Origin: an uncultured Clostridia bacterium | Lineage (GTDB): Bacteria; Bacillota_I; Bacilli_A; RF39; UBA660 | Assembly: GCA_948433435.1 (NCBI GenBank) | Contig: CAOJDX010000001.1 | Location: 17,564-81,563 of the forward strand | Direction of reading: 5' to 3' | Length of the DNA stretch: 64,000 nt | In this document: positions 35,491 through 43,644 of the stretch, piece after piece | How positions within the stretch are numbered: position 1 is the first letter of the stretch | Layout: every line of letters begins with the position of its first letter | The notes under the pieces: model-generated | Seen by the model: only the letters and a program-made list of their open reading frames with translations | Told to the model about the DNA's origin: nothing | Databases searched by the model: none | Made by a program: the position numbers and the translations under genes

Positions 35491-36018
35491 TTAGAAAAAT
35501 TTCAATTTATTAATTGGCCATATTCTTAAAGTAATCCTTCCTGTGATATCCTTTTTGTTTATTAATCCTATTTTTCTACTATCTAATGAGTTAGAACGAT
35601 TGTCTCCCAAAACTAAATACATATTTTCAGGGATTACTTCATATCCTAACTCTTGTAGATGAAAATCTGTATAGGTTAAATTTTTATTTAAGTATTTTTC
35701 TTGATATATTTTATTGTTGATATATAGTTGATTATTAACTATTTTTATTTTGTCTCCAGGTATACCAATGACTCTTTTGATTAGGTATTTTGTATCTGCA
35801 TAATTCAACGAAACAATATCTCCTCTTTCAATAGTAACAAAATGATATCTTAATTTGTTTAATATTAAGACTTCACCGTTTTTTAATGTTGGACTCATAG
35901 ATTCGCCTACTACTTGGGTAATTGAAACTACATAAATAATGATCACCATTATGCTAAAGATTATAAAAATGTATTTTATGGTGTCTAATAAATATTCTCT
36001 TATACTTAACCAATCCAT
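35491..36018 (-). CDS. lepB: signal peptidase I (LepB/SipS type, S26A)
   Basis: 175 aa. N-terminal TM, VVGESMSPTL (catalytic Ser), KRVIGIPGD (catalytic Lys), GDNRSNSLDSR. Confidence 0.9.
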   Translation of the reverse strand: MDWLSIREYLLDTIKYIFIIFSIMVIIIYVVSITQVVGESMSPTLKNGEVLILNKLRYHFVTIERGDIVSLNYADTKYLIKRVIGIPGDKIKIVNNQLYINNKIYQEKYLNKNLTYTDFHLQELGYEVIPENMYLVLGDNRSNSLDSRKIGLINKKDITGRITLRIWPINKLKFF

Positions 36019-36168
36019 ATTGTTTCCTACCTATCTGCATTATTATATTCTACTAAAGTATATAATATATATTACTTATTTGCAAGTAATAAATTTATTT
36101 TAACCCACAATGAAAACAGGTAAGGAATATATTTTTTCATTACTTTTTCAAGATAATTAATTGAATTG

Positions 36169-37818
36169 TTAAACTCCGTTATTTATTATAAATTGTATAT
36201 CACTATTATTTTGTTCCAAATTATCATTAGCAGGTATTGGTTCATTTAGGTTATTGTTATAGTTTTCTATACTATTATCACTTAAATTATTTGAATTACT
36301 AGTGGTACTATTCTCTGTTTCCTTCTCTTTTTTTATTTTAAATGATATGTGAGTATTTTTATTTTCTTCTGTTTTAGTAAAAGATTCTTTTATTATATTT
36401 TCATTAAATTCTTCCATTATTGTGTTCATTAAAAGAATTAATTCATCGTCTGTAAGATTATCATTATTAGAATATACCAAATTAAAGTTAATGAAATCGT
36501 CTGTTTCGTTTTGGATTTCTATTGGAATAATCTTTATTTTATTGTGTATAGTTGATGTTGATATTTCAATTAATAAACAGTTAGTCTCATCTTTTATCAA
36601 AAAATAAGCTTTTTGTGGACTTAGGGTGTTAGTTTGGGTAATGCTTGCTAAAATATCTTCTCTAATAGTTATTTTTTCTTTTAGATTTTGGGTTATATTG
36701 CTGAAAATGTCTAAACTTGCCATAAAAACGCTGAGCATGTGTTCATAATTATCATGATAGATGAAAAATTCGTTATCTGTTACTGAGGTATAAATACAAT
36801 CCATAATGTTGGGTTCTATTTTAATAAACTCCTCAGAAGGATATGTTATTCCATCAATTATCTCCTGATTTAATATGATGGTTCCAATATCATTTTTAGA
36901 TTTAATATAGTTTTTAATTAAAGATATTTCGTTGCTTGTAAAAGAATAATATTTATTTAGATAATAAGTAAATATATCCTCTATTTGAATAGTATCCATT
37001 GTTGTAAAAACCATTACTCCACTATTGTTGTTTTCATTATTTTCATAATAAGTACGAGCATAACCAAGAAAGTTTTCATCTTCCTGGTAGGTATATTGAT
37101 TGGTATCTTCTTGATAGTTAAGTTTAATTCCTAGTAGATTAAAGGAAGAGTCTGTAATTTCGGCAGTTTTAATATAACTACTTATTTCTTTGTTATATTT
37201 TTTGTACTTATCTTTTGCTATTAATGAATTTATGATCATAGTTTGAAGATCAGAGTTGCTTATTTTGGAATTAGTATTTTTCACTTCATTTGAAGTATTT
37301 GTTATATGATACTCTTCATGATAATTATATTCTTTATAGCGAAATGGAATTTCATCATTGATAGACTCATTTATTTGAACTGAAATATCTAAATATTGCT
37401 TACTGATTGCATCTTCACTAGTTTCTGATTTAATTAGATTACCTTCAGTTAGATTACAAGTGATTCTAACATTGAAAGGATTAGTATCTGAAAATGTAAT
37501 TTCATTTTTAGCAGTACTACATTCGTCTGGTAAGATAAGATTGTATACATCTTTTTCTACTACTCCTAAATCAGCTGTGTTCTTTGATAGGGAAAATTCT
37601 AAAATGGCTTCGTTGGCATCAATTGAAATTAAATTCATTGGAGCATTATTTTCCGTTTCTAATGAAATTATATTTGAATTATATTTTAGAATTTCATTTT
37701 CTCTAATCATAAATTTTGTATATGATGTTGGATATGCAGAAAAATTAATTATTCCTAAAACAATTAATGTAAAACTCATAATTTGGATAGTTTTTGAATG
37801 CTCTTTTACTCTTTTCAT
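36169..37818 (-). CDS. hypothetical secreted protein with SipW-cognate-like N-terminus
   Basis: 549 aa with RBS AGGAGG. N-terminal TM/signal MSFTLIVLGIINFSAYP followed by TSYTKF, the motif class shared with the 223-aa and 206-aa proteins. No recognisable domain; Asn-rich C-terminus. Confidence 0.5.
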   Translation of the reverse strand: MKRVKEHSKTIQIMSFTLIVLGIINFSAYPTSYTKFMIRENEILKYNSNIISLETENNAPMNLISIDANEAILEFSLSKNTADLGVVEKDVYNLILPDECSTAKNEITFSDTNPFNVRITCNLTEGNLIKSETSEDAISKQYLDISVQINESINDEIPFRYKEYNYHEEYHITNTSNEVKNTNSKISNSDLQTMIINSLIAKDKYKKYNKEISSYIKTAEITDSSFNLLGIKLNYQEDTNQYTYQEDENFLGYARTYYENNENNNSGVMVFTTMDTIQIEDIFTYYLNKYYSFTSNEISLIKNYIKSKNDIGTIILNQEIIDGITYPSEEFIKIEPNIMDCIYTSVTDNEFFIYHDNYEHMLSVFMASLDIFSNITQNLKEKITIREDILASITQTNTLSPQKAYFLIKDETNCLLIEISTSTIHNKIKIIPIEIQNETDDFINFNLVYSNNDNLTDDELILLMNTIMEEFNENIIKESFTKTEENKNTHISFKIKKEKETENSTTSNSNNLSDNSIENYNNNLNEPIPANDNLEQNNSDIQFIINNGV

Positions 37819-37839
37819 TATTGATACCTCCTATTTTCC

Positions 37840-38451
37840 TTATTTGGATGTTTTTTGTTCAGCTGAATAATCGATTGTTACGATTTTTTCTATATTTTCC
37901 ATACTTTTATCTATGTCTTCGTAATATGGATTTCCATTTTTATCTTTTAAAATATTTTTGCCATTATAGCGAACTGTTATCTTATATTTTGTATTCTTTC
38001 CTTTTGCTGGTAATATTGTGTTTTCTAAATTAATTTTATTATTCTTTTTTATGTTTTCTAAATTAATTGGTTGATACTCATTGCTAGTGTTGTTTTCGAT
38101 GGATGCCAATTCTATAATTTCAAAATTGGAGTTAACATTGATTGTTAAGATAAAAAAGGTTCTAACTTCTATATTTTTGGTATCTACTGTAAAGTAATAG
38201 GATATTGGACTGGTTGGACGATATTTTCCTATTGAACATGTTTCTAATGCTCCTGGCTTACAGCCCTCATCTTCATCATAATGGATATCTATATTGAAAT
38301 TGGCAACACGGGCATTTTCTTTTTCGACAAAGCCAATCATATACTTAGAGTAAGTGATTACAGAAGTAAAAAATAGCATTACTCCAATATACATTCCCAA
38401 CCATCTGTATAAATTTTTTCTGAATTTTTTACTATGTAATAAATATTTCAT
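37840..38451 (-). CDS. small TasA-like protein with SipW-cognate-like N-terminus
   Basis: ATG at 38451 after AGGTGA; an alternative GTG at 38460 overlaps the sipW stop. ITYSKY...ENARVANFNID parallels GTYAKY...DEARVAKWGID in the 223-aa protein. C-terminal IDYSAEQ parallels VKITATQ / TasA FEATQ. Confidence 0.55.
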   Translation of the reverse strand: MKYLLHSKKFRKNLYRWLGMYIGVMLFFTSVITYSKYMIGFVEKENARVANFNIDIHYDEDEGCKPGALETCSIGKYRPTSPISYYFTVDTKNIEVRTFFILTINVNSNFEIIELASIENNTSNEYQPINLENIKKNNKINLENTILPAKGKNTKYKITVRYNGKNILKDKNGNPYYEDIDKSMENIEKIVTIDYSAEQKTSK

Positions 38452-42736: not shown

Positions 42737-42885
42737 TGTTTCACCTCCTTTCATTGATGCTAAGAAGTCATGAATGACTTCTATAAATTTATATGTAAAC
42801 CCAAAATGGTGTTTACCAATGCTCATCAAGGTGAAGTCAATTAGTGACTTCTTAAAATATTTGAATTTGTTTTACTTAACTCTTT

Positions 42886-43551
42886 TTAATTATTAGAATT
42901 ATTTCTCTTTGAACCTGTCTTTTTTTGTTTAGAAGTAGTTTTCTTTTGTTTTTTAGCTTCTTCTTCTCGCTCTTTGTTCAATTTAAATTCTAAATATTCT
43001 CTTTGTTCGATTTCCCTTTGTTTTTTGGTTGAAATCATGAATCCCATGGCAAATATTGCGGTGATTCCAAGTAGAATGATGATAATTGTCGTAGGCTCTG
43101 CTAGTGTTTTCATGATAGAACCAATTCCTGGTATTCTAACAATATATTTTCCTTCTACATCTTTAAATTCTACTAAATTTTGATCTTGTGATGAATTATT
43201 ATCTCCTTTAGTGATAAAATATTTAACACCATCGTTTTCAACAATATCAATAATTCTATGAGTAGTAACTGTATTTTCAGAATCTCTAAACGCAATTACT
43301 TCATTCTTTTTTAGAGACTTAGGATTAACAATTTTTGTTAGTACTAGATCCCCTTTGTGAATTTCAGTTTCCATCGAACCAGAAAGAACGATAAAGGGTT
43401 TGTATCCAAATAAACTTGGTACCTTATTCTTGTTTGTTTTAGATTGAATCATAATATAGATATTCGCAAGTAAAATTATTGTTAAAATTATAAAGACTAT
43501 TGTTAAGCCTATATTTGCTAATTTTTTTGACCATTGTTTTTCTAATTTCAT
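42886..43551 (-). CDS. sipW: signal peptidase I, archaeal/SipW type (S26B), copy 2
   Basis: 221 aa. VLSGSMETEIHKGDLVL (Ser), TVTTHRIIDI (His), ITKGDNNSSQD, C-terminal TM and a Lys-rich tail. Confidence 0.85.
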   Translation of the reverse strand: MKLEKQWSKKLANIGLTIVFIILTIILLANIYIMIQSKTNKNKVPSLFGYKPFIVLSGSMETEIHKGDLVLTKIVNPKSLKKNEVIAFRDSENTVTTHRIIDIVENDGVKYFITKGDNNSSQDQNLVEFKDVEGKYIVRIPGIGSIMKTLAEPTTIIIILLGITAIFAMGFMISTKKQREIEQREYLEFKLNKEREEEAKKQKKTTSKQKKTGSKRNNSNN

Positions 43552-43592
43552 TGTTTCACCCTCTTTGATTTAAAATCGCTCTTCTGTTAAAA

Positions 43593-43644
43593 ATTATAAT
43601 ATTTACTCAAGAAATTTGTCAATACAAATTATGACAAATTTCTT
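43593..43644 (-). promoter_or_regulatory. near-consensus sigma-A promoter overlapped by a perfect 13-bp inverted repeat (candidate operator)
   Basis: Minus strand reads AAGAAATTTGTCA-taatttgtat-TGACAAATTTCTT (43609-43644). TTGACA (43617-43622) lies inside the right arm; an 18-nt spacer precedes TATAAT (43593-43598), ~40 nt upstream of the sipW copy 2 start. Confidence 0.55.

Follow-up and report, generated by a model that had tools for sequence, protein, structure and literature searches.

A conserved six-gene cassette with two endoplasmic reticulum/archaeal-type signal peptidases in uncultured gut Bacilli, probably encoding a TasA-like surface fibre

A stretch of 64,000 nucleotides (nt) from contig CAOJDX010000001.1 of an uncultured Clostridia bacterium, hereafter referred to as the window, harbors a minus-strand locus at positions ~36169 to 43622, which most likely represents a six-gene operon with the order sipW-A, B, C, sipW-B, E and F. 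Two of these genes code for signal peptidases of the endoplasmic reticulum (ER)/archaeal type, while the remaining four code for putatively secreted proteins. The seven minus-strand open reading frames (ORFs) described in an earlier note on this DNA, comprising these six and the neighbouring lepB, are all present at the positions given there. The cassette genes and the C-terminal domain of protein C are as follows, with predicted cleavage sites marked by a slash:

42886 to 43551, minus strand: sipW-A (sipW-2 of the earlier note), coding for a 221 amino acid ER/archaeal-type signal peptidase I with an N-terminal transmembrane segment, a C-terminal transmembrane segment and a Lys-rich tail
42065 to 42736, minus strand: B, coding for a 223 amino acid putative major fibre subunit with the predicted cleavage site SVSGTYA/KYTD and a putative donor strand ending in DEARVAKWGID
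39113 to 41971, minus strand: C, coding for a 952 amino acid multidomain protein with a hydrophobic N-terminus containing a lipobox-like LLTSCSC, beta-rich repeats and a C-terminal B-like domain
39206 to 39685, minus strand: C-terminal domain of C (amino acids 763-922), a B-type core without the N-terminal signal and strand, putatively acceptor-only
38457 to 39116, minus strand: sipW-B (sipW-1 of the earlier note), coding for a second ER/archaeal-type signal peptidase I of 219 amino acids
37840 to 38451, minus strand: E, coding for a minor B-like subunit of 203 amino acids when read from the ATG, with the motif VITYS/KY followed by ARVANF
36169 to 37818, minus strand: F, coding for a fast-diverging 549 amino acid protein with the N-terminus PTSYT/KFM..EILKY, a putative strand-donating tip or accessory protein

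The start of B is placed at the ATG at position 42736, which lies behind a GGAGG sequence, rather than at the TTG of the mechanically derived ORF. Public gene calls start E at the ATG at 38451, yielding the 203 amino acid product, while an alternative GTG at 38460 would give 206 amino acids. The genes from C onwards are closely packed, with C and sipW-B overlapping by 4 nt, sipW-B and E separated by 5 nt (or overlapping by 4 nt if E starts from the GTG) and 21 nt between E and F. Wider gaps separate sipW-A from B (149 nt), B from C (93 nt) and F from lepB (150 nt). The G+C content is even over the region, and the flanks carry housekeeping genes, including alaS-like, DNA polymerase III delta-like (holA) and rarA-like ORFs, as recognised by eye, and lepA, mutS, xseA, dnaK, pepF and parC. 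An origin of the locus from a mobile element or prophage is unsupported in view of these flanks and the even G+C content.

Relatives of the cassette were identified by searching the GTDB representative genomes, one for each species, for the B motif, which yielded 77 loci. All of these are located in metagenome-assembled genomes (MAGs) that carry the labels Bacilli, Tenericutes, Mollicutes, Mycoplasma or Erysipelotrichaceae, a few labels being doubtful, and the names of the MAGs point to mouse, rabbit, roe-deer rumen and human gut samples. The order sipW-A, B (in one to two copies), C, sipW-B, E is retained in approximately 65 of the 77 loci, with tight spacing from C through F, and this gene arrangement is conserved far beyond chance. 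The suggestion of the earlier note that the locus is an enlarged and uncharacterised SipW-type cassette is supported by the two SipW copies, by the synteny and by the secreted proteins, which are unnamed and lack a Pfam or NCBIfam family of their own. A literature search furthermore retrieved no paper that mentions both SipW and these lineages. In six MAGs bearing the label Clostridia or Bacillota, a simpler cassette is found that comprises two SipW genes and one or two B-like genes, suggesting that the two-peptidase design is wider than the six-gene form. In these simpler loci (L043, L053, L055, L061, L068 and L073; labels Clostridia, Oscillospiraceae and Faecalimonas) the SipW genes flank the B-like genes, and L053 and L055 encode proteins of ~460-480 amino acids which end in a B-like domain.

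Both SipW proteins score above the curated cut-off (51.85 bits) of the archaeal-type signal peptidase I model TIGR02228 in the NCBIfam scan (sipW-A: 98.7 bits; sipW-B: 88.5 bits). Against the Bacillus SipW equivalog model NF046067 they reach 106.7 and 81.2 bits, respectively, below its cut-off of 190 bits, and both can be regarded as homologues rather than equivalogs of Bacillus SipW. The Ser/His signature of MEROPS family S26B that had been read from the sequence is present in both window copies in the form of SGSM (catalytic Ser), THRI (His) and KGD(N)N (Asp box), and sipW-A can be aligned with human SEC11C and SEC11A over SGSME, HR and KGDNN. The catalytic motifs are kept in at least 85% of the relatives in both lines (76 relatives of sipW-A and 66 of sipW-B), with SGSMEPT, THRI and TKGD found in at least 85% of the 66 members of the sipW-B family. 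The two window copies share 33% amino acid identity. Across the related loci, the copy upstream of B is of one single type (73/73) and the one downstream of C belongs to the second type in 65 of 67 cases. Mean identities are 58% among upstream copies, 45% among downstream copies and ~30% when the two lines are compared. This distribution suggests that the SipW duplication is old and that each paralogue has kept its position, and the two genes accordingly appear to be anciently diverged paralogues with intact catalytic motifs.

An uncharged hydrophobic stretch followed by [ST]-x-[AST]-[KR]-[YFW] is found in exactly three ORFs of the 64-kb window, namely B (SVSGTYAKYTD), E (SVITYSKYM) and F (PTSYTKFM), and forms the most conserved part of the B and E families. 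Of the four secreted proteins which the earlier note had credited with a cognate signal, only these three carry the motif, while the N-terminus of C differs. The scans returned no Pfam (at E<=0.1) or NCBIfam family for B, E or F, and no signal-peptide model of the TIGR04088 type (G-T-x-A-x-F-x-D around the cleavage site), named in the earlier note as a profile to be searched, is listed among their NCBIfam matches.

The 203 homologues of B retrieved in a word-indexed search are all unnamed and none has a Pfam domain, while an exhaustive search with the B profile recovered 7580 cluster representatives (50% identity clusters), among which 1314 fall below 1e-30. The most conserved block of the family comprises G24, T25, Y26, A27, K28 and Y29, which are invariant or nearly so, with T25, A27 and Y29 invariant. 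It is followed by D.ARVAKW and later by APG, WxW, D..DT.LG (DTxxG) and a terminal TATQ. Residue E97 is invariant, and D37, together with K28, is nearly invariant; by eye, no conserved core Lys in the family could be matched to the Asn-Glu-Lys triad of BsaA. The N-terminus of Bacillus subtilis TasA reads ...GGGTWAAFNDIKSKDATFASGTLDL, and the TasA chain in the fibre structure 8AUR begins at AFND, directly after the Ala of GTWA/AFND. By analogy, B would be cut after A27 (GTYA/KYTD), freeing a strand-like segment. The likeness between GTYA/KYTD and GTWA/AFND was read by eye and is without statistical support. E and F likewise appear, on inspection by eye, to carry a looser form of the TasA-type cleavage motif. 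A metagenome scan for the TasA family recovered three near-identical B. subtilis loci only and served just to confirm the TasA N-terminus.

An AlphaFold2 (AF2) model of B was obtained from 103 sequences with a predicted local distance difference test (pLDDT) score of 86.6. When compared with the PDB using Foldseek, its top match is the TasA fibre (8aur_A; E-value: 1.6e-3; probability: 0.98; template modelling (TM) score: 0.35), while every other match has an E-value of at least 0.15, approximately 100-fold worse. The description of the 223 amino acid protein as TasA-like, which had been made from the sequence, is supported at the level of the fold, where 8aur_A is the sole clear match, and by the likeness of the cleavage motif, but not as regards the family PF12389, as discussed below. 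Weak recurrent matches to ComP_DUS in 19 B-family members (best E-value: 0.0087) were judged to be most likely an artefact of the signal segment. In one clade (L011, L013, L021 and L041) the B proteins are longer, at ~370-380 amino acids, and in L011, L013 and L021, but not L041, the B gene is present as a tandem pair, with a separate leader and 3' hairpin element for each copy.

The homologues of E (n = 173) are likewise all unnamed. Comparison of the E and B families with hhalign gave 95.2% (E-value: 2.5e-8) over 88 columns, and a terminal [ST]A.Q strand is common to both. E can thus be considered a divergent homologue of B, both proteins having been described as TasA-like in the earlier note. 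The AF2 model of E (115 sequences; pLDDT: 84.4) consists of a long N-terminal helix followed by a beta-sandwich, and its top Foldseek match is AbpA, a TasA homologue from archaea that forms the bundling pilus of Pyrobaculum (7ueg_A; E-value: 2.9e-3; TM-score: 0.23). The models of the two proteins support, although not conclusively, their placement in the TasA/AbpA fold class. The first 20 residues of E, a cytoplasmic/transmembrane head of the form MK.LL.SK.FR.NLY.WL.MY, show a mean column identity of 0.79 against 0.40 in the body. A head approximately twice as conserved as the body would be unusual for a merely discarded signal peptide, and suggests a role for this segment while E is still membrane-bound. 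The region following the predicted cut, ARVA.F, is nearly invariant. For one E homologue (P0168), the precomputed annotation lists PF28357.1, an accession missing from the Pfam copy used, with which P0168 gave no match; some of the E family may already fall under a very recent Pfam entry.

F matches no family in Pfam or NCBIfam. Nearly all loci contain, within 45 nt after E, a gene for a protein of 350-1200 amino acids with an N-terminal [ST]x[SA][KR][YF], and phmmer recognises only 21 of these positional genes as homologues of F. The retention of the positional partner and of the N-terminal motif, with divergence of the rest of the protein, suggests that F is a fast-evolving positional orthologue. 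Homology of F to B was considered and rejected, as only the N-terminal 25-60 residues resemble B and E (hhalign: 15-41%), while the mature parts give 0.1%. The B-family hidden Markov model (HMM) also detects no B-like core in F.

Protein C sits between B and sipW-B in 70 loci. It contains the cadherin-like domain PF12733 twice (~40643-41209; E-value: 6.7e-28), and its N-terminus consists of a charged head, a long Ile/Leu stretch and then LITSC(SC)TS.FFGKIG, the window copy reading LLTSC. Of 66 proteins in the C family, 60 contain a lipobox of the Gram-positive G+LPP type, sought as [LVI][ASTVI][GAS]C at the end of the hydrophobic segment of the signal. A SipW-type signal on C was rejected in favour of this lipobox and anchor, the N-terminus LITSC(SC)TS being of a different kind, while SipW-B might conceivably cut C at TSCS/C. 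At the opposite end of the protein, the supposition that the C-terminus of the 952 amino acid product resembles B is supported by both the B-family HMM and BLASTP. The HMM matches amino acids 763-922 of C at HMM positions 59-192 (E-value: 1.4e-6 in a database of ~2700 ORFs), and the C-terminal domain is matched in 54 of 73 C proteins (best E-value: 1e-9, relative to ~2700 ORFs). These matches always span B HMM positions ~55-210, which correspond to the core without the signal and the post-cleavage strand. In the BLASTP alignment, YPGAHGYY, WKWV and DTMIGN of C coincide with the invariant B columns PG, WxW and DT..G.

The following putative regulatory features flank sipW-A and B:

43593 to 43622, minus strand: promoter-like site upstream of sipW-A, TTGACA, an 18-nt spacer and TATAAT, with a consensus match of 12/12
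42737 to 42885, minus strand: structured leader of B, with hairpins at 42851-42833, 42817-42794 (GGTAAAC...GTTTACA) and 42782-42763 (AGAAGTC...GACTTCT), followed by the ribosome-binding site AAAGGAGGTGAAA
41989 to 42055, minus strand: RNA element 3' of B, with stem P1 at 42055-42037, stem P2 at 42037-41999 and a conserved tail at 41998-41989

The promoter-like site is the best predicted sigma-70 site in a scan of 11.5 kb, and no sigma-70-like site with at least nine matches is found between sipW-A and B in the window, suggesting that B is probably transcribed from the sipW-A promoter. The spacer between B and C contains a strong hairpin in all 70 loci which have this spacer (median -24 kcal/mol), and the sequence of the 3' element is conserved although the neighbouring proteins are only 30-50% identical. 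Stem P1 is GGAAGTT-loop-AACTTCC and P2 is CAAATAAACCTATG-loop-CGTAGGTTTATTTG (also written CAAATAAGCCTATG-loop-CATAGGTTTATTTG), followed by the tail GAAATTAAAT (also given as GGAAATTAAAT). In P2, 99% of the cells are paired and compensatory changes occur at 9 of 14 pairs; none of 500 shuffles reached the observed covariation values and slid controls collapsed. The frequent G-U pairs in P2 indicate that the structure forms on the sense (mRNA) strand. P1 also covaries (GGAAGC/GCTTCC, GGAAAC/GTTTCC and GAAAGC/GCTTTC), and its pattern occurs once in the window against an expectation of 0. An nhmmer profile of the 3' element hits only at 6-47 nt after B stop codons, in the window and in 64 loci, and nowhere else in 1.22 Mb, and the element follows both B copies in three loci. 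A long-range helix between ATTTAACTTCC and the tail GGAAATTAAAT, enclosing P2, was rejected since the key pair is a C-A mismatch in ~12 sequences and covariation is not consistent.

The leader hairpin of B has a conserved base, GGTAAAC/GTTTACA (3' side: GTTTACATAGAT), one bulge and a covarying upper stem. The corresponding nhmmer profile matches upstream of B genes only and on the sense strand only, in 53 loci, while the window copy falls below the nhmmer threshold and was identified by eye. A second leader hairpin in relatives reads AGGAAG...CTTCCT, and a palindrome, TGCATAGTACTATGCAT, is found in the B leader of many relatives and is absent in the window. Interpretation of GGTAAAC...GTTTACATAGAT as a sigma-70 promoter was discarded on account of poor hexamers and spacings and of a spacer which is self-complementary and covaries. 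No Rfam family matches the hairpins flanking B in the window at its gathering score, with sub-threshold look-alikes only, including FuFi-1 (23.3 bits against 59.6). P2 is preceded by an A-tract and has a U-rich 3' arm; it may act as a leaky intrinsic terminator or a 3'-end stabiliser that raises B over the downstream products, and the B-leader hairpins could serve in mRNA processing or stability or as the site of a regulator.

We suggest that the cassette probably builds a sortase-independent surface fibre of the TasA/BsaA/AbpA kind, in which F and E would form the tip, B the shaft and C the membrane anchor. TasA, AbpA and BsaA polymerise by means of N-terminal donor strands, and SipW processes TasA and TapA (PMC9674648; PMC9245690; PMC11580942); in the model for BsaA, the signal peptide retains the newest subunit in the membrane up to the point of SipW cleavage (PMC11580942). 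In the cassette, B, E and F would be exported by Sec, each with a hydrophobic signal ending in a small-x-small / Lys/Arg-aromatic sequence, at which an ER/archaeal-type SipW would cut, freeing an N-terminal strand (ARVAKW in B, ARVANF in E and EILKY in F) for insertion into the beta-sandwich of the next subunit by donor-strand complementation. Having both strand and core, B would make up the shaft and E would serve as a minor adaptor or initiator. F, in which a strand is joined to a large variable body that lacks a B-like core, would occupy one end of the fibre, probably as an adhesin, while C, with its lipobox-like anchor, long stalk and strandless C-terminal B core, would accept a strand only, terminating the fibre and tying it to the membrane. 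SipW-A, encoded beside B, would process the shaft subunit, and SipW-B, translationally coupled to E and F, the minor subunits. We infer this pairing from gene position, coupling and the parallel conservation of each enzyme with its neighbours. The hairpin pair after B, together with the leader hairpins, would give B a large excess over the other products.

A more far-reaching proposal is that the cassette represents a previously undescribed class of Gram-positive pilus, anchored to the cell and dependent for its assembly on gating by two specialised ER-type signal peptidases, in which SipW-B frees the F and E strands to start the fibre, SipW-A drives elongation with B, a lipid-anchored, acceptor-only C ends and tethers it, and a lineage-conserved RNA module sets the subunit ratios, the whole serving a large group of uncultured gut Bacilli with reduced genomes as their main organelle of adhesion. 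We put this forward tentatively, as a possibility with the balance against it.

Several observations weigh against the proposed anchored fibre. No link to TasA is apparent at the sequence level: none of 103 B-family members matches PF12389 (Peptidase_M73, IPR022121) even at E<=10, and B, C, E and F of the window give no match at E<=0.1, so that the affiliation with Peptidase_M73 raised in the earlier note was not recovered. The B-family profile also matches no PDB sequence, and hhalign of the B family against a single TasA sequence gives 0.9%, with the signal peptide only being aligned. The Foldseek matches are weak in absolute terms, with E-values of ~1e-3 and TM-scores of 0.35 for B and 0.23 for E, and for E the Gram-positive pilins, carbohydrate-binding modules and FimG score almost as well as AbpA. 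Four C proteins (P0059, P0060, P0066 and P0072), all from the clade with the longer B proteins (L011, L013, L021 and L041), are without the lipobox Cys (SLITS-GLTT); lipid anchoring of C would therefore not be universal, and C might instead be cleaved and released. Finally, the putative assignment of peptidases to substrates follows gene position, the order of subunits along the fibre would be a deduction from the parts which each protein possesses, and strand exchange in B, C, E and F is proposed by analogy with the known fibres.

These points leave room for three other explanations. The cassette could produce a released biofilm-matrix scaffold like that of Bacillus TasA, made up of free B fibres, with C, E and F acting in the manner of TapA/CapP as nucleators or chaperones, or as adhesins of the matrix. 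The systems nearest to it among those characterised (tapA-sipW-tasA, sipW-tasA-calY with CapP, and sipW-bsaABC) are described as matrix systems with accessory proteins, the top Foldseek match of B is the TasA fibre, and the anchoring of the cassette fibre is itself our inference. We nevertheless consider release unlikely: C joins an anchor-like N-terminus (60/66) with an acceptor-only B core at its far end, for which an anchor is the simplest reading, the twofold higher conservation of the cytoplasmic/transmembrane N-terminus of E over its body points to a membrane-bound stage, and BsaA oligomers are themselves reported to be membrane-anchored (PMC11580942). The lack of sequence-level matches to any polymerising family, the weakness of the fold matches and the frequency of beta-sandwich folds in non-polymeric surface proteins would also suit an explanation without a fibre, in which the four proteins B, C, E and F remain monomers, secreted or at the surface, and act for instance as adhesins, enzymes or a coat layer. 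They would merely share an unusual signal which the general LepB cannot cut, and for which two dedicated peptidases are retained next to them. This explanation is more improbable still, given that the region after the predicted cut (D.ARVAKW in B and ARVA.F in E) is nearly invariant, as expected of a donor strand and not of the start of a monomer, that C carries a B core missing exactly that segment, and that the sole clear PDB match of B is a donor-strand fibre.

A spore-surface structure is suggested by the PDB entry 5of1, which names TasA 'Spore coat-associated protein N', the name under which TasA was first described, and by the prediction that RF39 and related orders include sporulating species (PMC10868615). 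We regard such a structure as very improbable, as no sporulation genes surround the cassette, its neighbours being housekeeping genes of the alaS, holA and rarA type, the upstream promoter-like site is a perfect sigma-70 consensus, and the cassette is found in many MAGs labelled Tenericutes, Mollicutes or Mycoplasma.

Of the characterised systems, tapA-sipW-tasA of B. subtilis resembles the cassette in having a dedicated ER/archaeal-type SipW encoded beside its substrates, in the G-T-aromatic-A / x-aromatic-x-D end of the signal as read by eye (GTWA/AFND in TasA and GTYA/KYTD in B), in a major subunit with a putative jelly-roll-like beta-sandwich, as suggested by the top fold match of B (8aur_A), and in an accessory secreted protein processed by the same kind of peptidase, as is predicted here. 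The cassette differs in containing two SipW proteins rather than one and four secreted proteins rather than two, in that B, E and F fall outside PF12389, in the absence of a TapA homologue and in the presence of C, a giant anchor-like protein with an acceptor-only B domain. The sipW-bsaA-bsaB-bsaC locus of Clostridium perfringens likewise starts with sipW, followed by genes for a TasA-like major subunit that polymerises, for another TasA-like protein and for a large accessory one, and many BsaA-like proteins also fall outside the M73 family. Its membrane-anchored BsaA oligomers are reportedly built by donor-strand exchange timed by SipW cleavage (PMC11580942). It has, however, a single SipW, its accessory protein has a VWA domain, and BsaA is locked by an Asn-Lys isopeptide bond with a catalytic Glu.

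In Pyrobaculum, AbpA is a TasA-superfamily pilin that can be recognised only by fold or profile-profile comparison, and it is the top fold match of E (7ueg_A). Its partner protein has been proposed to start the fibre by strand donation and to carry distal adhesin domains (PMC9245690), which parallels the role proposed here for F and E. Unlike the cassette, the archaeal AbpA/AbpB operon has no dedicated signal peptidase (PMC9245690), and the hosts, accessory genes and gene set differ. The chaperone-usher pili (Fim/Pap) offer an analogy only, in that an end subunit accepts or donates only, adaptors do both, and the major subunit is produced in excess via stem-loop mRNA. The cassette shares no homology with them and has no chaperone, usher or outer membrane, and its assembly would instead be gated by signal-peptide cleavage. 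The cassette is most likely an elaborate, uncharacterised variant of a known system and not a new kind of machine. The SipW/TasA fibre principle is already established, and the function of the present cassette would follow from it by analogy. Features that appear to be new are the constant arrangement of six genes, the two SipW lines that each keep to one position, an acceptor-only domain carried by a giant protein resembling an anchor, the rapid evolution of F, which bears a strand, the RNA module surrounding B and the host range of uncultured gut Bacilli.

SipW/TasA-type fibres serve as a model for Gram-positive matrix and surface filaments which are built without sortases, and to our knowledge only small SipW/TasA cassettes from cultured Bacillus and Clostridium have been studied. 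The same principle would here be realised by a constant set of six genes, encoding two peptidases and four secreted proteins of different build, which recurs in dozens of uncultured species from the gut and whose major-subunit family, B, has thousands of unannotated members. If the proposed scheme is correct, it would provide a defined tip, shaft and anchor logic for this class of fibre, a natural test case for substrate specificity between SipW paralogues, and a candidate factor for host colonisation in lineages that have been seen in metagenomes only. The RNA hairpins around B form a separate lead on how subunit ratios are set.

Additional genes flank the cassette on both sides, and one of these had been counted as part of the unit in the earlier note:

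35491 to 36018, minus strand: lepB, coding for a 175 amino acid general bacterial-type signal peptidase I, a neighbour outside the cassette

The lepB product scores 161 bits on TIGR02227 and is an ordinary LepB. Its gene adjoins F only in the closest relatives (L001, L003, L004, L006 and L009), is separated by ~1.8-2.6 kb from the final cassette gene that could be recognised in L005, L060 and L063, is located upstream in L074, and was not seen in the remaining loci of the 77 within the stretch fetched for each. Synteny thus rules out LepB as a member of the cassette, its linkage being confined to the nearest relatives. At 33393-36018 on the minus strand, lepB is followed by a gene for a 548 amino acid secreted protein with an ordinary signal peptide (VFA/N), an Asn/Ser-rich low-complexity stretch and three repeats of ~85 amino acids. 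This repeat protein is found next to the cassette only in the nearest relatives, while its pairing with lepB persists in relatives even where the two are split from the cassette (L060, L063 and L074). Directly upstream of the cassette, at 43714-44106 on the minus strand, is a gene for a 130 amino acid bacterial PH-domain (bPH) protein (PF08000), which is syntenic with the cassette only in the nearest relatives (L001-L006 and L009). The lepB, 548 amino acid protein and bPH genes reflect local synteny and not the system. Approximately 25 kb from the cassette, at 9484-11205 on the minus strand, the window furthermore encodes a GspE/PilB/ComGA-type secretion ATPase; type IV pilus proteins of C. 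perfringens have been reported to aid the export of Bsa proteins (PMC11580942).

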